From assembly GCA_025963875.1 (NCBI GenBank), contig JAOPZY010000162.1, positions 1 to 43,988 on the forward strand: 43,988 bases of DNA, given 5' to 3'. Positions 3,608 through 13,555 of the stretch are shown here, piece by piece. Origin of the DNA: Actinomycetota bacterium. Lineage in GTDB: Bacteria; Actinomycetota; CADDZG01; JAHWKV01; JAOPZY01. Numbering within the stretch: the stretch's first letter is position 1; each line of letters begins with the position of its first letter. The notes below the pieces were generated by a model. That model was not told the DNA's origin, made no database searches, and saw only the letters and a program-made list of their open reading frames with translations. Made by a program: the position numbers and the translations under genes.

Positions 3608-3979
3608 TCAGCCCGCCGGGTCGAACCAGAGTCGTTTGCGGCTGCGCGGGTTGCCGTTGTAGTTGATCGTGATCTCGCTGCCGGGGCTGATCCGCCGGAT
3701 GGCGCTGATGATCAGGACCGGCCCCTGCCCCGCCTGGTCGTAGCGGGCCGTCGGCTTGTAGGAGTGGTTGTAGAGGCTTCCGAAGCCGAGGGCGAGGGCA
3801 CCCTCCCCCTGCCCCCACTCGTAGTAGTAGCCGCTGAAGACCGTCCGGTCGATCAACTCGCGCTGGGGGGAGGGGATCACCAGCACCGGGCACTCCTCGA
3901 TGGGATCACCCGAGGAGAACGGCTCGTCGGTGAAGACCCCGAACCCGTGCAGCGGGGACGGGGCGACGTACAGGCTCAC
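3608..3979 (-). CDS. Bacterial SET-domain protein-lysine methyltransferase
   Basis: SET motifs SPLHGFGVF, LYNHSYKP, GSEITINY; GTG start 11 nt after the upstream gene stop. Confidence 0.88.
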   Translation of the reverse strand: MSLYVAPSPLHGFGVFTDEPFSSGDPIEECPVLVIPSPQRELIDRTVFSGYYYEWGQGEGALALGFGSLYNHSYKPTARYDQAGQGPVLIISAIRRISPGSEITINYNGNPRSRKRLWFDPAG

Positions 3980-3990
3980 GTTTACTTCGG

Positions 3991-4929
3991 TCAGGGGGTG
4001 ATTTCGACGGGGGTGCCGAGGGGGATGGTGTGCATGAGCTTGGCGAAGTCGCCAGGCCCCATCCGGACGCAGCCGTGCGAGGCCGGGGTGCCGAGGATGC
4101 TCGTGTCCTGCCAACCGTGGATGCCGGTCCGACCCCCGCCCGGCCAGTTGTCGAGCACGGGTGAGAAGCCCGAGAGGGCGAAGATGCCGACCGCATACGG
4201 AGCAGAGTTCCAGTCCTGGGTGGCCCAGACGAAGAAGTTGCCGTTCGGCGTCGGGGTCGACGGGGCGCCGACCGCCACCGTGAAGGACTGCTGCACGGCG
4301 CCGTTGTTGTAGAGGTCCAGCTTGAACTGCGACTGGTGGACGCGGATGAAGTACGTCACCGTCCGGGTGGTCACGCTCGAGGCCTGAACCCAGCCGGTGG
4401 AGCCGTTTGGCTTGACCGGGAGCTCGACCTGGTACCAACCCGGCACCGAGGCGTCGGTCACCAGGAGCGCCTCGCGCTGGCCCAGGACGTTGGAGCCGGC
4501 GATGTGGTTGACGACGGGGCCGCCGGTGGGGTTCGCGTAGACCGGCACCGAGGAATCCAGCACATCGGCCACGAGCGACGTGCCGGGGGCCTCTGGCGGC
4601 GGCGCCGGCGGTGGGGCTGGGGGCGCCGGTGGGGCAGGCGGGGGGAACAGGGCATCGAGCAGAGCCTGGAGGCCGTTCTGATCGGCGCTGGTGGCGGCGG
4701 TCGTCGCGGCGCTGGCGACGGCCGCCGACTGGGCGGCGCTGCCGGCCTGGGCCGAGGACGAGAGACCGACAGCCCCCACCACCGCGGAGGCGACCAGCGT
4801 GATCCCCGCGCCGATGGCGAGGGGGAGCCGCAGCCTCGGCGGCACGCTCCAACCCATCCCGTGACGCTGCGGCTCGGCCGGGACGCTGCTCTGCGGTCGC
4901 CAACCGGTTGGTTCGGTGTTCCTCGCCAT
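3991..4929 (-). CDS. L,D-transpeptidase (YkuD family), membrane-anchored
   Basis: N-terminal TM helix, Ala/Pro linker, VAVG..TPTPNG, IHGW...SHGCVRM catalytic motif; GGAGG RBS. Confidence 0.92.
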   Translation of the reverse strand: MARNTEPTGWRPQSSVPAEPQRHGMGWSVPPRLRLPLAIGAGITLVASAVVGAVGLSSSAQAGSAAQSAAVASAATTAATSADQNGLQALLDALFPPPAPPAPPAPPPAPPPEAPGTSLVADVLDSSVPVYANPTGGPVVNHIAGSNVLGQREALLVTDASVPGWYQVELPVKPNGSTGWVQASSVTTRTVTYFIRVHQSQFKLDLYNNGAVQQSFTVAVGAPSTPTPNGNFFVWATQDWNSAPYAVGIFALSGFSPVLDNWPGGGRTGIHGWQDTSILGTPASHGCVRMGPGDFAKLMHTIPLGTPVEITP

Positions 4930-5031
4930 GGCCTACCTCCTGACGGAAATCTGACCTACGTCGCCCTGTGCTGTCAAAGCCGAGTTCTACCCGTTCTGGC
5001 GCCGTCACCTTTCCCGGTTCGAATCGGCCGC

Positions 5032-5062
5032 TTGACTCTCCAGTAACTGGAGGCTCCACAGT
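5032..5062 (+). promoter_or_regulatory. MerR-type promoter/operator
   Basis: TTGACT-19 nt-CACAGT with the perfect dyad CTCCAGT-A-ACTGGAG (5038-5052) in the spacer; ATG lies 6 nt downstream. Confidence 0.8.
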
Positions 5063-5068
5063 GTTCCC

Positions 5069-6028
5069 ATGAACGCAGCAACCACCCGCTTCCCGATCGG
5101 AGAGCTCGCCCGCCTGACGGGGCTTTCCGTCCGGACGATCCGGTTCTACTCGGAGAGCGGGCTGGTGCCCGAAGCCGGCCGGACGCCGGCCGGGTACCGC
5201 ATCTATGACAGGGATGCCGTGGAGCGCCTGGGCCTCGTCCGGACCCTCCGCGACCTCGGCATCGACCTGCCGACCATCCGCAAGGTGCTGGAGCGGGAGG
5301 TGTCGGTGGCCAGCGTGGCCGCGGCCCACGCCGCCGCTCTCGACGTCCAGATCCGGGGACTCAGGCTGCGCCGGGCGGTGTTGCGGGCCGTGGCGGAGCG
5401 AGGTGCAACCAACCCACAGGAGGTGGAGCTGATGAACAAGTTGGCACAGTTGTCCGACGCCGAGCGCCGGCGGATGATCGAGGACTTCCTCGACGACGTC
5501 TTCCGCGGCGTCGATCTCGACCCGAAGTTCGAGCAGGGGATGCGGACCGCAATGCCCGACCTCCCCGAGGAGCCAACGACCGTCCAGGTCGAGGCATGGG
5601 TCGAGCTTGCAGAGCTGGTCGCCCAACCGGATTTCCGCCGGAGGCTCCGCGAGATGGCGGAGCGGGCAGCCACCGAACGGACGGAAGGGCGAGGTCGGGA
5701 GGAAACCTCCGAGACCGCCATCGCCACCGCCAAGATGGTCGCCTCGAGGGCAGGCGAGGCGAAGGCGGCCGGGATCGATCCCGGATCGCCACAGGCCGCC
5801 CCGATCGTCGCCGAGATGATCAGGGACTACGCGGACTCCCTCGGCAAACCTGACAGCCCCGAGTTTCGCCGGTGGCTCATCGGAATGGTCGACACCTTCA
5901 CCGATGCCCGGGCAGAGCGGTACTGGCAGCTGCTGGCGACGATCAACGGCTGGCCAGCCATTCCGAGCGTCGTCCCCGCGTGGGAGTGGTTCGTAGCGGG
6001 GGTCCGGGCCTCGCTCACTGGGAACTAA
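5069..6028 (+). CDS. MerR family transcriptional regulator with long C-terminal effector domain
   Basis: IGELARLTGLSVRTIRFYSESGL...GYRIY HTH. Confidence 0.93.
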   Translation: MNAATTRFPIGELARLTGLSVRTIRFYSESGLVPEAGRTPAGYRIYDRDAVERLGLVRTLRDLGIDLPTIRKVLEREVSVASVAAAHAAALDVQIRGLRLRRAVLRAVAERGATNPQEVELMNKLAQLSDAERRRMIEDFLDDVFRGVDLDPKFEQGMRTAMPDLPEEPTTVQVEAWVELAELVAQPDFRRRLREMAERAATERTEGRGREETSETAIATAKMVASRAGEAKAAGIDPGSPQAAPIVAEMIRDYADSLGKPDSPEFRRWLIGMVDTFTDARAERYWQLLATINGWPAIPSVVPAWEWFVAGVRASLTGN

Positions 6029-6066
6029 GGAGCACATCGCGCACGGACGCGCGACAGGCTCCTAAG
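6025..6066. repeat. REP-like imperfect palindrome between convergent genes
   Basis: CTAAGGAGC..TCGCGC-ACGGAC-GCGCGA..GCTCCTAAG; the core resembles elements at 2849, 24644 and 34935. Confidence 0.65.
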
Positions 6067-6996: not shown

Positions 6997-8388
6997 TCAG
7001 GCGACGATCGGATAGCCGGAGGTGGTCCACGCACTCATGCCGCCGGCAACGCTCAGCACCCGCCCCGGCCGCAGCGGGGCGAGAAGGCTGGCGGCTACCG
7101 TTGACCGGTAGCCGGTCGAGCAGATGAAGGCCACGGGGTTGTGGTTGGGCACCTGGTCGAGCCGGGCGGGAAGCTCGGCCCCCGTGATGAAGGTGGCTCC
7201 CTCGATGTGGCCGCCCGCCCACTCGGCGGGCTGGCGGACGTCGACCACGTTGACCGCGCGGGCCTCGATCCGGCTACGCAGCTCGTGCACGTCGAGCAGC
7301 GGGAGCATGTCCATCTCCCCGGCGCTCGCCCGCCAGGCGGCCATGCCGCCCGACAGCCAGCCCTCGGGGAGGTCGTAGCCCACGCGCAGCAGCTGCCACG
7401 CGGCTTCCCAGAGCTGCGCCGGTCCGTCGAGCACGAGCAGGACCCGGGCGCCCTCCGGAAGGACCGTGCCGGCCCAGGTCGAGAACGACGGGCCGAGCCC
7501 CACGTTGAGCGCACCGGGGATGTGCCCGCCGGCGAACGCCTCCGGGGACCGGGTGTCGACCACGATCGCCCCGGCGTCGCGATGGCGGCGGAATTCCGAG
7601 GGAACGAGCGCGGGCGGCTCCCAGAGGTCGATCCCCGGCGGTCCGCCCAGGTTCATGCCGCGCATCCGTCGCCAGTAGGGCGGTACGGCCGGGAGGTGGT
7701 CGAGCCGGAGGCACTCCTCGACGAACTCCTCCGAGGAGCTGATCCGGGACAGGACCGGGTTCGTCCGCCGCTCGTACCCGACGGTTGTGGACAGCCGGCT
7801 GCCGATGGTGCCGCCGCAGAGCGACCCCCGGACGTGGGTGGGATAGACCGCCACGTGGTCGCCGAGGCGCCACAGGAGCTGCTGGATGGTGTGGCAGGAA
7901 TCCTGGGCAGCGGAGCGGACGGTGTCGGGGCTCCCCAGCAGGTCGGGCCTGCCCACGTCGCCGACGAGCAGCGCCCCCCCGGAAAGAAGCAGCACCGGGT
8001 CCTCGCCGCGGGAGCGGTCGTAGACCAGCAGGCTCACGTGCTCGGGGGTGTGGCCGGGGGAGTGGATCACTTCGAAGGCGACGTCGCCCATCTCGATGAC
8101 CTCGCCGTCGGTGACGCTGCGGTTGTCGTAGCCGAGGTCGGCACCGGCGAAGCCCAGCACCTCGATGTCCTGGCGGAGGCGCAGCTCCGACAGGCCGCTC
8201 AGGTAGTCGTTGTGCCCGTGGGTGTCGATGGCGTAGGCGATCCGCAGCCCGTGCATCCGGGCGGACTCGAGGTAGACCTCCACGTCCCGGCGGGGATCGA
8301 GCACGAGCGCCCGGCCCGTCCTCTCGTCACCGACGAGATAGGACGCATGGCCCAAACTCTCCAGATAGAACTGCTCGAAGATCATCAT
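6997..8388 (-). CDS. MBL-fold persulfide dioxygenase-like domain fused to two rhodanese domains (CstB/Blh-like)
   Basis: DTHGHNDYLSG, SPGHTPEH, GDVGRPDL, YPTH..GSLCG; two GHIPGA/GHIEGA rhodanese repeats; final CSTGYRS active loop. Confidence 0.9.
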   Translation of the reverse strand: MMIFEQFYLESLGHASYLVGDERTGRALVLDPRRDVEVYLESARMHGLRIAYAIDTHGHNDYLSGLSELRLRQDIEVLGFAGADLGYDNRSVTDGEVIEMGDVAFEVIHSPGHTPEHVSLLVYDRSRGEDPVLLLSGGALLVGDVGRPDLLGSPDTVRSAAQDSCHTIQQLLWRLGDHVAVYPTHVRGSLCGGTIGSRLSTTVGYERRTNPVLSRISSSEEFVEECLRLDHLPAVPPYWRRMRGMNLGGPPGIDLWEPPALVPSEFRRHRDAGAIVVDTRSPEAFAGGHIPGALNVGLGPSFSTWAGTVLPEGARVLLVLDGPAQLWEAAWQLLRVGYDLPEGWLSGGMAAWRASAGEMDMLPLLDVHELRSRIEARAVNVVDVRQPAEWAGGHIEGATFITGAELPARLDQVPNHNPVAFICSTGYRSTVAASLLAPLRPGRVLSVAGGMSAWTTSGYPIVA

Positions 8389-8560
8389 GGACCCCCATTT
8401 TTACCCGGGCCGCTCCCTACATCTGACAGTCTCAGTAGGCCAGGGCTGCCTGGGATATCCGTGAGAGCCGCTTGAGGATTGGCTGTGGATTTGCGGCCCT
8501 TCAAAAACGGCTCTCGCGAGGGCCGCGGGCTATGATCCGGCCTGGGGCGCCCAGGACGAT

Positions 8561-8581
8561 TATGATCGAACAGACGTTCGA
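8561..8581 (+). promoter_or_regulatory. LexA (SOS) box overlapping a TATGAT -10 element
   Basis: TCGAAC-AGAC-GTTCGA (8566-8581) matches the actinobacterial consensus TCGAAC-N4-GTTCGA exactly; TATGAT at 8561-8566. Confidence 0.85.
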
Positions 8582-8628
8582 GGTCAGTGGAGCCAAGGGG
8601 CCCTCAAGCCCCGGATGGGAGCAAACAG

Positions 8629-10059
8629 GTGGCGGAACGGCGGGAACCGACCCAGACGTCGCGCTTCGGCGTCTCCCGCCGGGAGAACCACGACGCCAGC
8701 GCCTTCTATGCGCGGTTCACGCCCCCCAAGCTCAGCGCGGACAACGCAGTCCACCCAGACAAGGCCATCGACGAGATCTTCACCGGCGACGCCCGCGAGA
8801 TGAAGCATGTCCCCGATGCGTCGGTGGCGCTTGTGGTGACGTCGCCGCCCTACTTCGCCGGCAAGGAGTACGAGGAGGCCCTCGGGGAGGGCCACATCCC
8901 GGCCACCTACCTCGAGTACCTGCAGATGCTGGAGGACGTCTTCGCCGAGTGCGTGCGCAAGCTGGAGCCGGGCGGGCGCATCGCGGTCAACGTCGCCAAC
9001 CTCGGCCGGCGGCCGTACCGGTCGCTGTCCTCGGACGTCATCGGCATCCTCCAGGACAAGCTCCGCCTCCTGCTGCGCGGCGAGGTGATCTGGCAGAAGG
9101 CCCGGGGCTCCTCCGGCTCCTGTGCCTGGGGATCCTTCCAGCGGCCGGCCAACGCCGTCCTGCGTGACCTGACCGAGCGGGTGGTCATCGCCAGCAAGGG
9201 CCGGTTCGACCGTGCCCTGACCGCCCGTCAGCGGCACCGTGAGGGCCTGCCGTCGTCGGCCTCCCTCTGGCGCGACGAGTTCATGGAGGCCACCACCGAT
9301 GTCTGGGAGATGCCGCCGGAATCGGCCACGCGGGTCGGCCACGCCGCCCCCTTCCCGGTCGCCTTGCCGAGGCGGCTCATCCACCTGTACACCTACTACG
9401 ACGACCTCGTCCTCGACCCCTTCATGGGCTCGGGGACCACCGCGGTGGCAGCAATCGGGACGCGGCGCCATTTCGCCGGCTACGACATCGACGCCGCCTA
9501 TGTCCAGAAGGCCCGTGCCCGTGTCGCCCATGCACTCCAGCAGCGCGCCGGCCTTGACGAGGAGACGCTTTCGGTCGAACTCCCGGCCATCCCGGCGAAG
9601 GCCCATCCCGACGAGGACTTCCAGGCCCGGGCGGTCCGGGAGGGCCGGGCGGCCCGGGACGTGGCGGAGGCACTCCTGCACCAGTGCGGTTTCGAGGGAG
9701 TCCAGCGCAAGGTGCGCCTCCCGGTGGGGGTCGAGGTCAACTTCCGCGCCTACGACCGGGACGGCGGCGAGTGGTTCTTCGACGTGTCCGGCGGCTTCAC
9801 CTCCACTCGCCCGGGGCTCATGCGCACGGACACGCTCTGGAAGGCAGTGGGGAAGGCGGCGGTTCTCCACGAGGCGTACCCCAGGATCCCGCTGGTCCTG
9901 CTCACCACGGACTCGCCGAAAGGCGGGGCGGGCGGGGCGGCGCTTCGGGTGGTGCGTGGCCCCGACAAGCCCATCTTCGACGTCCTGCAGATGACGTCCT
10001 CGACCGATCAACGCAAGCTCCATGCCTACGCGCACGGGGTCCGGCCGGAGGGGACCTGA
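8629..10059 (+). CDS. Beta-class amino-DNA methyltransferase (probably m4C) fused to a C-terminal degenerate PD-(D/E)XK domain
   Basis: VVTSPPY precedes HAAPFP and VLDPFMGSGTT; C-terminal ~140 aa are colinear with the nuclease at 10423. GTG 8629 has a GGGAG RBS (alternative start 8587). Confidence 0.9.
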   Translation: MAERREPTQTSRFGVSRRENHDASAFYARFTPPKLSADNAVHPDKAIDEIFTGDAREMKHVPDASVALVVTSPPYFAGKEYEEALGEGHIPATYLEYLQMLEDVFAECVRKLEPGGRIAVNVANLGRRPYRSLSSDVIGILQDKLRLLLRGEVIWQKARGSSGSCAWGSFQRPANAVLRDLTERVVIASKGRFDRALTARQRHREGLPSSASLWRDEFMEATTDVWEMPPESATRVGHAAPFPVALPRRLIHLYTYYDDLVLDPFMGSGTTAVAAIGTRRHFAGYDIDAAYVQKARARVAHALQQRAGLDEETLSVELPAIPAKAHPDEDFQARAVREGRAARDVAEALLHQCGFEGVQRKVRLPVGVEVNFRAYDRDGGEWFFDVSGGFTSTRPGLMRTDTLWKAVGKAAVLHEAYPRIPLVLLTTDSPKGGAGGAALRVVRGPDKPIFDVLQMTSSTDQRKLHAYAHGVRPEGT

Positions 10060-10066
10060 GGCCCCG

Positions 10067-10426
10067 TTGGGTGCATCCGGCGGGACCCTGGGTTGGCCCG
10101 GCAGGGTCGCCGTCGGCGTCCTCCACGGCGACACGCCCGAGGTGTTCCTTGCGGAGTCCGATGCCGTGCTGGGCCGGCTCCTCGCCCTCCGGCTCGTGGG
10201 GCCCTCCCGCCCGGAGGACTTCGGGCCGGGGATCCTGGAGGAGATCCGGTCCGCCCTCCTCGAGCAGCGCTGGGCGGACGCCGTGACCGCGTGGATGCTG
10301 GCATCCGGGGAGGTCCTCGACGGCTACCCCGACGAGGAGGTCGTCACCGAGGAGATGCTGGACGACGAGCGGGCCTCGATGGAGATCCGGCTCTCGCCGA
10401 TCTTCGGCGGCCAGGCCGGCCCGTGA
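10067..10426 (+). CDS. Small acidic hypothetical protein
   Basis: Fills the gap between the MTase and the nuclease; GC3-rich codons; TGA overlaps the next GTG (GTGA). Start codon uncertain (TTG 10067). Confidence 0.7.
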   Translation: MGASGGTLGWPGRVAVGVLHGDTPEVFLAESDAVLGRLLALRLVGPSRPEDFGPGILEEIRSALLEQRWADAVTAWMLASGEVLDGYPDEEVVTEEMLDDERASMEIRLSPIFGGQAGP

Positions 10427-10842
10427 GCCTCTTCCAGTCGGCCGCTTCCCTGCAGGGGCGCCAGTTCGCCGACCAGTGCGACCTCCTGCTCCGCAACTCA
10501 GGCTACGAGGTGGGCTCCCGGGTGCTGGTCACCACGATCGGCATCGAGATCGACCGAGAGGCGGTCAGTCCCACCGGGCGCATCATCTGGTTCGAGTACA
10601 AGGGCAGTGTCCAGGGGTCCCGGCCGGGGCTGCTTCGTACCGACACCCTCAAGAAGGCCATCGCCAACGGGGCACTCCTCAAGGCCATGGGGGACCGGCC
10701 CCCCTTCGTCGTGCTGACGTCCCATCTGCCCGAGGCGGGGGCCGGGCTCGCCATGCTCGAGACCGCCGTCGCGCTCGGCTACCTCGACGACGTCATCTGC
10801 GTCTACAAGCCCGCCGACACCGTCCGCCTCAAGCGCCTCTAG
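10423..10842 (+). CDS. Stand-alone PD-(D/E)XK endonuclease (restriction endonuclease-like)
   Basis: GRQF..helix, IEID, WFEYKG catalytic arrangement; GTGA coupling to the upstream gene. Confidence 0.8.
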   Translation: MSLFQSAASLQGRQFADQCDLLLRNSGYEVGSRVLVTTIGIEIDREAVSPTGRIIWFEYKGSVQGSRPGLLRTDTLKKAIANGALLKAMGDRPPFVVLTSHLPEAGAGLAMLETAVALGYLDDVICVYKPADTVRLKRL

Positions 10843-10854
10843 AGCCTTCGCCAT

Positions 10855-10909
10855 GATCTTCTTTGGGTGAATAACGCTGATATACGTTGTTCATCACCCA
10901 AAGAAGGTC
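10855..10909. terminator. AT-rich inverted repeat between convergent genes (bidirectional terminator or REP-like element)
   Basis: CTTCTTTGGGTGA / TCACCCAAAGAAG arms with an inner AACG..CGTT stem. Confidence 0.65.
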
Positions 10910-10913
10910 CGCC

Positions 10914-11930
10914 TCAGAAGTTCTGCTTGGCGCCCGGCCCCTTGGTCTTCCAGCCGTAGACCCGTTGCGGGCCGCAGCTCCCCGTCCGGGGCGGCAGCTC
11001 GATGACCTCGGGCACGGGGTGGCGGAAGGAGGCTTCGAGCAGCGGGGCGGGATCCTCCCCGGCGCTCATGGCCAGGCAGGGCGCCACGAAGGCGCACGGG
11101 CCGCAGTGTTCCGGGGCCGGATCGGGGTAGATGGGCACCGCCGGGTCGCACATCTCCAGCGCAGCCGCTGCGAACTGACGCCGGAGTCGCCGGATCTCCT
11201 TGGGCGCCTTGCGAATCCGGGCCCTCCGGAACCACCCGTCGGGGTCCCCGACGACGGTGACGCCCCGGCGCCTCGGTCCCGCCGTGAACGCCATGGACGG
11301 CGCCGGCGGTCCCGGCGCCAGGCGGAGCTCGTTGATCATCACCCCGGCCACCGGCGCGTCGTACTGGGACTCGAGCGCCCAGCACAGGCAGGCGCTGCGG
11401 TGATCGAGCACGAGGGTGTCGAGGTCGGCCCACTCGCCGTCGACGATGCGGTGCTCCACGAGCCACAGGCGGTGGTGCTCGTCGACGACCACCAGCTCGA
11501 AACGGCCCCGGAACCGCACGGCTCTCCCGTCGGCGGCCACGAGCCCGGCCCCCGCCTGCGCGGGGTGGGGGACGACGACGTTGAACTCGGTGGTGACCCG
11601 CACGGCCGAGAAGTCGTCCACGCCGGGGGCCCAGTCGAAGTACCGAGAAAGCGCCAGGGCGCCGCGCTCGGTCGCGGACGCGTCGGCGTGCTGGGCACGC
11701 ATCGACTTGTGGAACGCCTCCATGGCGATGGGACGCACGAGGGAGCGGTCCCAGCCGCGCATGGCCGGGAAGTACCAGGCAGCGAGACCGTCGCGGACGG
11801 CCCGCCCCACGTCGACGGGCCGGAGCGGCTCGACGGGCTCCAGGTTCTGCCGTGCCGCGGCGCCGAAGTCCCATGCCCGGCGGCACCGTTGGAACGTCTC
11901 TGCATCCGTCAGGTCGATGACGTGGTCCAT
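10914..11930 (-). CDS. Cas4/AddB-like PD-(D/E)XK family protein with Fe-S cysteines and atypical catalytic motifs
   Basis: N-terminal FQRCRRAW, RGRFELVVVD..LVEHR, C-terminal HCGPCAFVAPC. The provided ORF start at 13451 is an over-extension. Confidence 0.8.
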   Translation of the reverse strand: MDHVIDLTDAETFQRCRRAWDFGAAARQNLEPVEPLRPVDVGRAVRDGLAAWYFPAMRGWDRSLVRPIAMEAFHKSMRAQHADASATERGALALSRYFDWAPGVDDFSAVRVTTEFNVVVPHPAQAGAGLVAADGRAVRFRGRFELVVVDEHHRLWLVEHRIVDGEWADLDTLVLDHRSACLCWALESQYDAPVAGVMINELRLAPGPPAPSMAFTAGPRRRGVTVVGDPDGWFRRARIRKAPKEIRRLRRQFAAAALEMCDPAVPIYPDPAPEHCGPCAFVAPCLAMSAGEDPAPLLEASFRHPVPEVIELPPRTGSCGPQRVYGWKTKGPGAKQNF

Positions 11931-11980
11931 GCCAACGGAATGGTACCCGCCGGGCTCGCCTCTGCCGCCGCCCGAAGAGG

Positions 11981-13555
11981 TCAATGTGTGGGGTCCACGT
12001 CCGGCGGGAACAGGTGGGCAACCACCGGTGGGCCCTCTGCAAGCGCCAGCGCCGCCTTCTGGAACTCGCGGTCCGTCCCGGTCATCCGCCCGGTGTGCTG
12101 GCGGAGATGCTCCTCCCAGGACCGCACGAGGTACAGCTCCACGAACCGCCGGGGTTCCTCGCCGTCGCGGTAGAGCTCCCAGCGGACGGCGCCGGTCCGG
12201 CGACGGGAGCGCCGCACCCTGTCCATGGCCTGGAGGAAGGCCGCCGCGTTCTCCGGAGCCACCGTGTACGTCAAAGAAACGAGGACCGGTTCGTCCGCCG
12301 CCGGCTCCAGCACCATGTGCGGCTCCGGCCAGTAGACGGCGGGACTGCGATCGAGGCCGCCGACGTCGGCGAGCGGCCAGCGCACCAGCGCCAGGGCGCT
12401 CAGTCCCAGCAGCCCGCCGGCGATGCGCAGGGCCCAGGCCACGCTGGACTGCTCGGCGACGAGTCCCCACCCGGCGGAGGCGACGGCCATGCCGCCGAGC
12501 AGCACGATCTGGTAGATGGAGAGGCCACGTGCCCGCACCCAGCCGGGGAGAAAGAGCTGCATCTCGGCGTTGAGGGTGGCGAGGACGGCGATCCAGGCGA
12601 GGCCCGCCGGCACCAGGAGCAGCGCCACGATGGGCGTCGATCGTGTGGAGGCAAGGGCCGCCATCACGGCGGCGTAGGTGCAGAAGGCCAGGAGCAGCAT
12701 CCGGGCGTCGCTCAGTCCCGCCCGCAGCCGGGGCAGGGCGATGGCGCCACCGACCGCGCCCACGCCGAGGGCGGCGAGGAGCACGCCGTAGCCCCCGGCG
12801 CCGAGACCGAGCCGGTGGCTCGCGACCACCGGGAGGAGGGCCCAGATGGCGCTCCCCGGGATCGAGAACAGGGCGGCGGTGAGCAGGATGCGCCGGACCA
12901 CCGGGGAATAGCGGATGTAGCGGGTGCCGGCGAGCAGGGCAGCCCCGAGGCGCTCCCGGCCCTCCCGGACCGCGCGAGGAGGGTGCCAGGCCGCCAGCAC
13001 GATGGCGAAGGCCACGAAGGACACAGCGTTGAGGCCGAAGACGGCGCTGGCCCCGAGCCTCGCCACCGCGGCTCCGGCCAGCGCCGGCCCGACGGCCCGG
13101 GCAAGGTTCTGGTTCATGCCACCGAGCGCCGACGCGGACGCGAGGTCGGCCCGGGGGACCAGGTCCGGAATGATCGCCTGCTGGGCAGGCAGGCTGAAGA
13201 TGGCCCCGCAGCCCAGCAGGAACGTCAGCCCGAGCAGGAGGGCAGGGTGCAGATTGCCCCTGGCCGAGAGCACGGCCATCACCCCTGCCACCACCGTCTG
13301 GAAGACCTGGCTCCCGATGAGCAGGCGCCGCCGGTCGACGATGTCGGCGAGCACCCCTGCGGGAAGGGCGAAGAGCACCACCGGGAGGGTCGTGGCCGTC
13401 TGGACCAGGGCGACGAGGGCCGCAGCATTGGGCTGGTGGACCAGCAGCCACTGGGCACCCACGGTCTGCATCCAGGTCCCGATGTTGCTGACGAGGGTGG
13501 CGATCCAGATCCAGCGGAACATCGTCAGGCGGAGCGGCTTCCAGGCCGAGTCCAC
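11981..13555 (-). CDS. MFS transporter (MFS_3-like) with C-terminal soluble domain
   Basis: FRWIWIATLVSNIGTWMQ, GVLADIVDRRRLL, many TM helices, C-terminal RRRTGAVRW..SWEEHLRQH. Start approximate. Confidence 0.9.
   Translation of the reverse strand: MDSAWKPLRLTMFRWIWIATLVSNIGTWMQTVGAQWLLVHQPNAAALVALVQTATTLPVVLFALPAGVLADIVDRRRLLIGSQVFQTVVAGVMAVLSARGNLHPALLLGLTFLLGCGAIFSLPAQQAIIPDLVPRADLASASALGGMNQNLARAVGPALAGAAVARLGASAVFGLNAVSFVAFAIVLAAWHPPRAVREGRERLGAALLAGTRYIRYSPVVRRILLTAALFSIPGSAIWALLPVVASHRLGLGAGGYGVLLAALGVGAVGGAIALPRLRAGLSDARMLLLAFCTYAAVMAALASTRSTPIVALLLVPAGLAWIAVLATLNAEMQLFLPGWVRARGLSIYQIVLLGGMAVASAGWGLVAEQSSVAWALRIAGGLLGLSALALVRWPLADVGGLDRSPAVYWPEPHMVLEPAADEPVLVSLTYTVAPENAAAFLQAMDRVRRSRRRTGAVRWELYRDGEEPRRFVELYLVRSWEEHLRQHTGRMTGTDREFQKAALALAEGPPVVAHLFPPDVDPTH

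Follow-up and report, generated by a model that had tools for sequence, protein, structure and literature searches.

In restriction-modification (R-M) systems, a methylase and a nuclease share one DNA site, which they usually read through protein parts that are unrelated to each other. PvuII and BamHI are examples of Type IIP R-M with β-class N4-cytosine/N6-adenine methylases, and Dam/MutH and Dcm/Vsr exemplify a chromosomal methylase accompanied by a nuclease that reads its mark. The subunits of two-subunit restriction enzymes must pair, and inactivation of one active site yields a nickase, according to the accessible portions of three reports (PMC6326814, PMC3017599, PMC2909958). Inactive restriction endonuclease (REase) domains are reused as DNA-binding or sensing modules, as indicated in an excerpt of PMC12065111, and conserved orphan DNA methyltransferases (MTases) are described for the Actinobacteria in the available part of PMC4752239. 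The subject of this study is a three-gene operon of an actinobacterium whose 3.84-Mb genome was assembled from a soil metagenome. The whole of contig JAOPZY010000162.1 (43,988 bp), on which the operon lies, is referred to below as the window. The first gene encodes an MTase with a C-terminal tail that is a dead paralogue of a small nuclease, the second a small acidic protein (open reading frame 2, ORF2) and the third the nuclease itself.

The operon is read here, with about even confidence, as a chromosomal, LexA-controlled Type II R-M-like module of unusual build. It is the most parsimonious reading. The methylase is a real one, the nuclease has an intact active site, a methylase gene adjoins the nuclease gene family-wide and the nuclease was not found without a methylase. 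The main features are as follows (coordinates are those of the window; aa, amino acids).

8566–8581: putative LexA operator, TCGAAC-AGAC-GTTCGA, a perfect palindrome (from the sequence and a genome scan)
8587–10059 (+): predicted DNA methyltransferase plus pseudonuclease; GTG 8629 (476 aa) is a likelier start than GTG 8587 (490 aa)
9592–10056 (+): C-terminal pseudonuclease of the MTase, residues 336–490, homologous core ~9613–10029 (from homology, residue signature and tree)
10067–10426 (+): ORF2, small acidic protein, 119 aa from TTG 10067; an alternative start, ATG 10022, overlaps the end of the MTase gene
10423–10842 (+): predicted stand-alone PD-(D/E)xK nuclease, 139 aa, GTG start (from the fold of a model and an invariant motif)

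The methyltransferase, its pseudonuclease tail and the stand-alone nuclease

Residues 80–309 of the first protein match PF01555 (N6_N4_Mtase, E 3.4e–35), and the protein also matches the PADLOC model MTase_II PDLC03350 (E 2.5e–85). Among solved structures it is closest to 2zie, a putative modification methylase from Thermus (E 2e–30), and then to N4-cytosine MTases and M.PvuII. The S-adenosylmethionine-binding and catalytic motifs SPPY and FxGxG are both present, and their order, TSPPYF before DPFMGSGTT, is that of the β-class; the SPPY motif presumably points to N4-cytosine methylation. By these motifs and matches, the product of gene 1 is classed as a β-class N4-cytosine/N6-adenine DNA MTase. 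The true start is probably GTG 8629 rather than GTG 8587, since homologues are 475–476 aa long and the LexA boxes of relatives lie inside the longer frame. MTase-pseudonuclease fusions of this kind form at least 1065 clusters at 90% identity, all of them labelled only as DNA methyltransferase, and the MTase domain is 60–75% identical across two classes among the loci fetched.

An AlphaFold2 (AF2) model of the stand-alone nuclease, with a predicted local distance difference test (pLDDT) score of 88.5, has the order helix, three strands, helix, strand, helix, strand, helix, and shows the α-β-β-β-α-β core expected of the PD-(D/E)xK superfamily. In a structure search independent of Foldseek (VIA, 48,161 chains), the top ranks were taken solely by PD-(D/E)xK nucleases: AF1548 (Z 9.3; root-mean-square deviation 3.1, 111 aligned), BsoBI (9.2), an XisH-like protein (8.9), BstEII (8.9), PspGI (8.7), BsaWI (8.6), Cdn1, Can2 and NucS (8.0). 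Several Type IIP restriction enzymes resemble the model at Z 7–9, and the small subunit of R.BspD6I and BbvCI were weaker neighbours (both Z 6.5). Foldseek returned the same kinds of match at probabilities of 0.94–0.99, none of them at E ≤0.001. Z values of 8–9 are near the stated background of the structure search for models without a clear match, and the assignment of the fold therefore rests on the uniformity of the matches together with the motif. E42-x-D44 is situated on the strand 41–48 and E58-x-K60 on the strand 54–60, and these four residues are invariant in 29 of 29 diverse aligned sequences. The signature E-D-E-K was found in all 121 close stand-alone homologues, and of the 150 representatives listed at 50% identity at least 125 retain D and K. 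The 139-aa protein is thus, on its model and motif, an active-looking PD-(D/E)xK nuclease for which cleavage is predicted.

The family of the nuclease comprises 732 clusters of proteins of similar length at E ≤0.001 and 308 clusters at 50% identity (1.84 billion representatives searched), and its sequences are 56–80% identical across two classes. The ESM Atlas returned solely unnamed actinobacterial clusters, with MunI, PDDEXK_3, Mrr_cat and PDDEXK_11 as weak leads (0.86–0.87). One member, P0159 (478 aa), joins an E-D-E-K nuclease domain to repeats that appear, from our own reading of the sequence, to be ankyrin-like.

A preliminary description of this locus, made from the DNA sequence alone, had proposed that the end of the MTase is homologous to the nuclease over the full length of the latter, and this was borne out. 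MTase residues ~343–481 (nucleotides ~9613–10029) align with nuclease residues 3–139; BLASTP gave 41/109 identical residues (38%) without a gap (E 2e–21), and a profile-profile comparison (hhalign) gave a probability of 99.6% over 137 columns (E 8.3e–24). When the whole 3.84-Mb genome was searched, the nuclease matched nothing beyond itself and the MTase tail. The same description had noted that the stand-alone copy keeps its catalytic residues and that the fused copy has lost them. Indeed, E-x-N...D-x-S is found in the fused copy where the nuclease has E-x-D...E-x-K, and these substitutions are conserved. Among the 120 best fused homologues the signatures are E-N-D-S (109), E-S-D-S (six), D-N-D-S (three), D-S-D-S (one) and E-D-D-S (one), so that Lys is lost in all 120 and Asp in 119. 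A segment RPGL-x-RTDT-x-x-K is kept in both the fused and the stand-alone groups.

A quick maximum-likelihood tree (IQ-TREE; 152 rows, 137 columns) contained many unresolved forks. All of the MTase tails nevertheless form one clade, with a support of 99 in the Shimodaira–Hasegawa-like approximate likelihood ratio test (SH-aLRT). This clade is sister (92) to three proteins of ~320–350 aa with a degenerate N-terminal domain, and the two groups together are nested among active stand-alone clades; the nuclease of the window falls in a different clade. Since the tails have a clade of their own and the window's nuclease belongs to another, the phylogeny places the tail as an old paralogue and not as a copy of the adjoining gene, which is what it had at first been taken for. 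Recent tandem duplication was also considered as the origin of the dead domain, and was rejected on this tree, in which the fused clade itself is well supported. In the three sister proteins (P0251, P0253 and P0260), the degenerate domain has the signature E-N-E-T and is followed by an unknown C-terminal half; the pseudonuclease module has therefore been reused outside methylases.

Twenty loci of the window's own class that lack the nuclease gene were fetched. All of them encode the fusion, with an MTase domain 61–75% identical and a tail kept at 44–66% identity. The tail therefore works for the methylase itself. It is most simply a DNA-binding or recognition module, since β-class MTases of such size have little else with which to recognise DNA. 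CcrM reportedly uses a C-terminal domain for this purpose.

The preliminary description had gone further and suggested a heterodimer of active and dead domains. In that event the nuclease would not work as a homodimer but would pair with the dead domain in an MTase-tethered complex with a single active site. This complex, induced by damage and targeted through the methylase, would nick DNA, or cut it only at places where two of them meet. We regard this as possible, if doubtful. The invariant RPGL-RTDT-K segment common to both paralogues is in its favour, as is P0130 (497 aa), a separate MTase fusion whose domain is 51% identical to the nuclease and lies near the nuclease's clade. That domain has independently lost the motif (E-S-A-H); the loss suggests that an MTase does not tolerate the attachment of an active nuclease.

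One controlled complex prediction was made for the heterodimer, in which tail residues 336–490 and the nuclease were both supplied as alignments in three runs. The interface score ipSAE was 0.45 (runs 0.49, 0.45 and 0.43), in comparison with 0.00–0.01 in three controls (best control 0.01); agreement in contacts between the runs was at least 97%, and the partners had pLDDT values of at least 80. In calibration, 116 of 157 solved complexes passed the mark, as did two of 215 mismatches. Passes at ≤0.60 comprise just 18 of the 157 complexes and both mismatches, so that a pass in that range is likelier to be wrong than right unless there is a strong prior. The model thus lends the heterodimer weak support. 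The score may reflect no more than a habit of the family, which probably homodimerises; paralogues of such a family could reach this score without binding each other in the cell.

Distribution and linkage of the genes

Fifty-five species-representative nuclease loci, nearly all of them from Acidimicrobiia-type or unclassified Actinomycetota, were compared. A tailed MTase gene is situated directly upstream of the nuclease gene in 31 (27 of them complete). One further locus has a tailless MTase abutting the nuclease gene, three have an MTase ~2 kb off on the other strand, two are distant homologues, and 18 are without an MTase in the fetched flank. For five of these 18 the whole genome was searched: four contain the full fusion, 4–14 kb away or on another contig, and in the fifth the fusion is diverged or broken.

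For the window's own class, in a tally that includes 19 unpublished genomes, 74 of 113 genomes match, mostly with the fusion alone; a stand-alone nuclease-type gene is present in nine. All seven genomes with a close nuclease (at least 75% identity) also carry the fusion. The sister class, to which Aquihabitans belongs, was sampled at a completeness of at least 90%; among its 301 genomes 99 match and 16 have the nuclease, 15 of these together with the fusion, and the nuclease of the sixteenth is on a short contig. Three genomes with ambiguous or broken genes (G264, G315 and G415) were left out of the 16, and exclusion of the unpublished G285 changes the count to 14 of 15. Cultured carriers include Aquihabitans sp. 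G128 (L020/L078) and Aquihabitans daechungensis DSM 27986 (L036/L079). Since related genomes are not independent, these co-occurrence counts are to be read as a pattern and not as a statistic.

A phylum-wide sample, with nine to ten unpublished genomes included, contained the family in 44 of 401 genomes, 28 from the window's own class and 16 from elsewhere; in several large families of that sample it was found in none of the genomes searched. All six stand-alone nuclease genes in the sample are beside an MTase gene. In a Pseudomonadota sample, one of 401 genomes was positive, the centre genome itself. The fusion is thus common and often stands alone, in contrast to the nuclease, which is rare and hardly ever occurs in a genome that lacks the fusion. 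The nuclease gene is thus linked to and dependent on the methylase gene (31 of 55 loci adjacent; 7/7 and 15/16 genomes), as is required of a Type II R-M system.

The dependence of the nuclease on the fusion would also be expected of the heterodimer. Against that proposal, most fusions exist without the nuclease, which means that their dead domain must serve a separate function, and the genes are kilobases apart in several genomes. Moreover, distant active homologues pair with tailless PF01555 MTases, convergently in G072 and in tandem in G001 and in an Iamia locus (L055). Together with the locus L050 described below, these pairs indicate that the family does not need a dead domain.

Two of these loci have peculiarities of their own. 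In L055, a different PF01555 MTase (120–1502, +) has a C-terminal tail of PF22722 NA-iREase1 (E 2.6e–7) plus Mrr_cat and lies upstream of the other MTase and the active nuclease homologue; it provides another example, unrelated to the fusion, of a methylase that bears an inactive-REase-like domain. In L050 (3078–4459), a tailless MTase domain runs into an active nuclease gene in another frame, an arrangement that would fit a recombinational deletion between the paralogous domains, or a frameshift.

A further explanation is that the system serves genome maintenance and not defence, as a solitary Dam/CcrM-like methylase, with the dead domain used for DNA binding, and a methylation-guided repair or strand-discrimination nuclease of the MutH/Vsr kind that has been recruited to the SOS response. 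This explanation appears unlikely. It is consistent with the frequency of the fusion in the window's class and the identities of its MTase domain in the 20 loci given above, with its restriction to a few related classes in the phylum sample, with the strong conservation of the nuclease and with a housekeeping gene neighbourhood. The mismatch nuclease NucS/EndoMS is also among the structural neighbours (Z 8.0). Yet the nuclease is patchy (9/113 and 16/301 genomes), which is odd for repair tied to a common methylase; no linked repair partner genes were seen, and the distant homologues occur in the plain MTase-plus-nuclease pairs typical of R-M.

ORF2 is acidic (isoelectric point, pI, 4.2; 21 D+E versus 8 K+R), and the nuclease gene begins at a GTG that shares two nucleotides with the TGA stop codon of ORF2 (GTGA, 10423–10426), in agreement with the translational coupling noted in the preliminary description. 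Its start is more likely TTG 10067, since conservation begins at WPGRVAV. The 74 homologous clusters are all unnamed and without Pfam annotation, and no match to ORF2 was found in Pfam, NCBIfam, PADLOC or PHROGs. The AF2 model (pLDDT 88) consists of two strands, three helices, a strand and a helix, for which there was no fold match in Foldseek (best E 0.44) or the VIA structure search (best Z 4.6).

The proposed three-gene order does recur, with ORF2 present in 22 of the 27 complete adjacent loci. ORF2 is absent, however, from the other five, among them a genome of the same genus that has both other genes. ORF2 follows the MTase gene in 11 of the 20 nuclease-less loci and is therefore not specifically a partner or inhibitor of the nuclease, a role that had been suggested for it. 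Most probably it is an accessory that the methylase-pseudonuclease can dispense with and that goes with the methylase rather than the nuclease. A DNA-mimic-like binding of the acidic protein to the basic tail or nuclease is conceivable.

These data bear also on an addiction or abortive module, in which the nuclease would be a toxin restrained by the dead domain and/or by ORF2, in the role of a DNA mimic or antitoxin, until expression induced by damage tips the balance to killing. The contrast in charge between ORF2 and the basic nuclease (pI 8.7) and tail (9.2), the coupling of ORF2 with the nuclease gene and the confinement of the nuclease to genomes with the fusion would all suit such a module. 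It is nonetheless very improbable in view of the five complete loci without ORF2 and the 11 with ORF2 and no nuclease. An antitoxin role needs no intact, highly conserved methylase domain, and no match was found to the toxin-antitoxin or abortive-infection models of PADLOC.

The putative LexA operator and the genomic surroundings

The sequence TCGAACAGACGTTCGA at 8566–8581 is a perfect match to TCGAAC-N4-GTTCGA, which we take to be the actinobacterial LexA-box consensus; the occurrence of the same motif before recA, a UvrD-like helicase gene and lexA in this genome supports that identification. The SOS box of the preliminary description is therefore upheld. It is situated upstream of both candidate starts, 6 nucleotides (nt) from GTG 8587 and 48 nt from GTG 8629. 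The 3.84-Mb genome has four perfect sites, this one included. The others precede the UvrD-like helicase gene, an HNH/DUF222-type gene and one further gene, and sites with one mismatch precede recA, dnaB, an ATP-dependent ligase gene and a WYL-type regulator gene (identities from our own reading of the N-terminal sequences). A lexA gene is present (contig C182), with boxes of the GAAC-N4-GTTC type ~100–170 nt upstream of it.

In both of the two same-genus genomes, a perfect box was found in the same place, with differing spacers (GAAG/CTTC, GAAC, compared with AGAC here). Changing spacers between constant arms are what a conserved operator would be expected to show. Of 28 adjacent loci, 13 have a box with at most two mismatches at the 5′ end of the MTase gene (–200 to +60), where ~1.1 would be expected from the background density over the 598,622 fetched bases; GAAC and GTTC are both intact in eight of the 13. 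The box is absent from the MTase 5′ region in G108 and G102, was found in none or one of the 20 nuclease-less loci, and was not found near any of the 18 nuclease genes that lie apart from an MTase. The unit is thus, judging by the operator, very probably under LexA in the window's genus, and LexA control is a feature of the lineage and not a property of the family. A damage-inducible module, as had been suggested, would accordingly be confined to some lineages, in which the operator matches. The same distribution cuts both ways for a role in genome maintenance: the operator is shared with recA, the UvrD-like helicase and the ligase, but most loci have no box.

In three of the loci (L009, L024 and L054), a half-conserved box, TCGAAC(A/G)TATGCGCGA, possibly a variant operator, is found at the MTase 5′ end. 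Of the frames preceded by a one-mismatch box, the recA-like one (G000 contig C8, 68–2236, –) encodes 722 aa, approximately twice the usual length of RecA, which suggests an intein or a fusion. The HNH/DUF222 gene behind a perfect box is a '13E12-repeat'-like frame of 453 aa (G000 contig C260, 10801–12162, –); such proteins are said to be SOS-induced in mycobacteria.

The three genes are co-directional, with a G+C content at third codon positions of 0.91–0.94 in all three frames, and are situated between a divergent (6997–8388, –) and a convergent (10914–11990, –) gene. The remaining features of the locus are listed here.

6997–8388 (–): metallo-β-lactamase (MBL)-fold/rhodanese gene, divergent neighbour
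8561–8566 (+): candidate –10 hexamer TATGAT, read from the sequence, abutting the LexA operator
10850–10912: terminator-like hairpin without a U tract, between the operon and the convergent gene (from folding)

A sigma-70 scan missed the hexamer at 8561–8566 and reported instead a minus-strand match (8587–8559, CTGACC-17-CATAAT) that overlaps the LexA box; with such a placement, the divergent MBL/rhodanese gene might be under the control of the box as well. In RNA-labelled libraries, short contigs over the 5′ part of the MTase gene have their starts at 8547, 8565 and 8583; two of the three libraries are probably DNA, and these starts are a weak hint as to the promoter. The hairpin has a folding energy of –31.5 kcal/mol (z –6.2), which was equalled by none of 200 shuffles. 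A scan for terminators with a T tract found none at the end of the operon and did not pick up this hairpin.

Among the loci compared, the flanking genes recur in the closest relative, L003, alone, and the convergent nuclease gene recurs in L005 as well; this synteny does not help to choose between vertical and mobile inheritance of the operon. The convergent gene (10914–11990), which is kept beside the operon only in these two closest relatives, encodes a PD-(D/E)XK protein of ~358 aa (PF12705 PDDEXK_1, E 1.5e–4) that has, at its C terminus, a Cas4/AddB-like cluster of Cys residues, CGPCAFVAPC. Farther upstream, an 809-aa frame (3608–6037, –) with a C-terminal SET domain (PF00856, E 2.4e–10) has antisense to it a MerR-family regulator frame (5069–6028, +; PF13411, E 2.6e–18); one of the two must be spurious at least in part.

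A proposed Type II-like module and its relation to known systems

As a Type II R-M-like module, the operon would work as follows. The methylase would mark a short DNA site and so protect the chromosome, and the 139-aa nuclease would cut the unmarked site. The dead domain would provide the methylase with a DNA-binding module of the nuclease's kind, and may also dock the nuclease. LexA would hold the operon low, and DNA damage would raise its expression. What we infer in this scheme comprises the methylation target, the cleavage, the protection, the binding of LexA and the roles of the dead domain and ORF2.

Several observations weigh against this reading. The nuclease and the MTase are unusually conserved across two classes, and the MTase is near-core in its own, which looks more like housekeeping; no mobile-element genes were seen near the operon, the surroundings of which are housekeeping genes. 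In Aquihabitans-type genomes the nuclease gene is 4–14 kb from the MTase gene or on another contig, an unusual situation for R-M, and a separated nuclease gene of this type has unrelated neighbours (a two-component system, CMD and DUF480). The nuclease has no match in Pfam, NCBIfam, PADLOC or PHROGs, and hence to no known REase model, and its best match to sequences in the Protein Data Bank has an E value of 0.047 or more. An R-M system repressed by LexA is also awkward, as the genome would be left under-methylated until induction unless basal expression suffices. The former active-site residues E383, D399 and S401 of the tail are invariant or nearly so, and some residual or altered chemistry in the dead domain may persist. 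Finally, a scan of the genome for site avoidance showed no marked avoidance of palindromes beyond the usual CTAG. The lowest hexamers were CAGCTG (observed/expected 0.58) and GGGCCC (0.67), and a guess at the recognition site from such avoidance was rejected, the scan being uninformative. It is on account of the conservation, the near-core methylase, the housekeeping surroundings, the kilobase separations and the missing REase model that a repair-type pairing of methylase and nuclease has been kept as a rival to the R-M-like module.

A tentative and rather unlikely extension of the R-M-like reading is that the dead domain is a docking and recognition twin of the nuclease, by which the methylase captures nuclease monomers in an asymmetric complex with a single active site, with LexA setting the ratio of the two after damage. 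If this were true, cutting would be coupled in space and dose to the enzyme that protects the site. The operon would contain a built-in switch for restriction alleviation or nicking, and would represent a new R-M subtype with one shared recognition fold. The survival of the fusion after loss of the nuclease would also be explained.

How the matched specificity of R-M systems originates and is kept up is an old question, to which the operon offers a testable route, by way of a recognition fold common to both enzymes, of the capture of one subunit by the other, or of the two combined. None of the libraries searched has a name for this large family, which is near-core in one actinobacterial class. 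The operon would also be a clear example of an R-M-like module under the SOS response, and supplies two small, well-modelled proteins that should be easily expressed, the 139-aa nuclease and a 119-aa acidic protein without a known fold.

Among known systems, a PF01555 methylase and a small PD-(D/E)xK nuclease are likewise encoded together in classical Type IIP R-M with a β-class MTase, where the nuclease is likewise dependent on the methylase. The operon is unlike these systems in that its methylase carries a dead paralogue of the nuclease and in its extra acidic gene and LexA operator. It differs as well in the conservation of its proteins across classes, in an inheritance that is mostly chromosomal and in the usual survival of the methylase alone. 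The preliminary description recognised no named system here. PADLOC, Pfam, NCBIfam and PHROGs name neither the nuclease nor ORF2, but the operon is still best classed as a variant of Type II R-M.

Related or complementary nuclease subunits are found in Type IIT and other two-subunit enzymes, such as BbvCI (R1/R2), BspD6I and BtsI. In those enzymes, neither partner is part of a methylase, and the natural heterodimers keep both sites active. Type IIG/IIC enzymes (BpuSI and MmeI) resemble the operon in having nuclease-fold and methylase domains in one polypeptide (PMC3185434, in the part available). Their nuclease domain is N-terminal and active and their MTase of the γ-class; here the domain is C-terminal, Lys and Asp are lost and a separate active-looking nuclease is encoded. 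With N and S at the catalytic positions, the MTase polypeptide has no nuclease domain with an intact active site. Inactive REase (iREase/inREase) domains, such as PF22722 NA-iREase1 and the N-terminal domain of Menshen NsnA, are likewise PD-(D/E)xK folds without catalysis. The tail matches none of those Pfam models, and an active-looking paralogue is encoded alongside it.

CglI of Corynebacterium glutamicum is reportedly a member of the LexA regulon. It consists of a C5 methylase, an R protein and an ATPase, families unrelated to those of the operon, and has no pseudonuclease; it is likewise an actinobacterial R-M system linked to stress, termed 'stress-sensitive' in the accessible portion of PMC4267653. 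A conserved chromosomal methylase with a small mark-reading nuclease is also represented by ScmA and a Vsr-like protein of Caulobacter (PMC12907096, from an excerpt). The families of the operon differ from those of this pair and of Dam/MutH and Dcm/Vsr.

A literature search, which covered its sources in part, returned no account in which a methylase is joined to an inactive paralogue of the nuclease that accompanies it. What is new in the operon, compared with the systems above, is the conserved pseudonuclease, from the same family as the nuclease, on the methylases of the main lineage: the parts are ordinary and the architecture is unusual.

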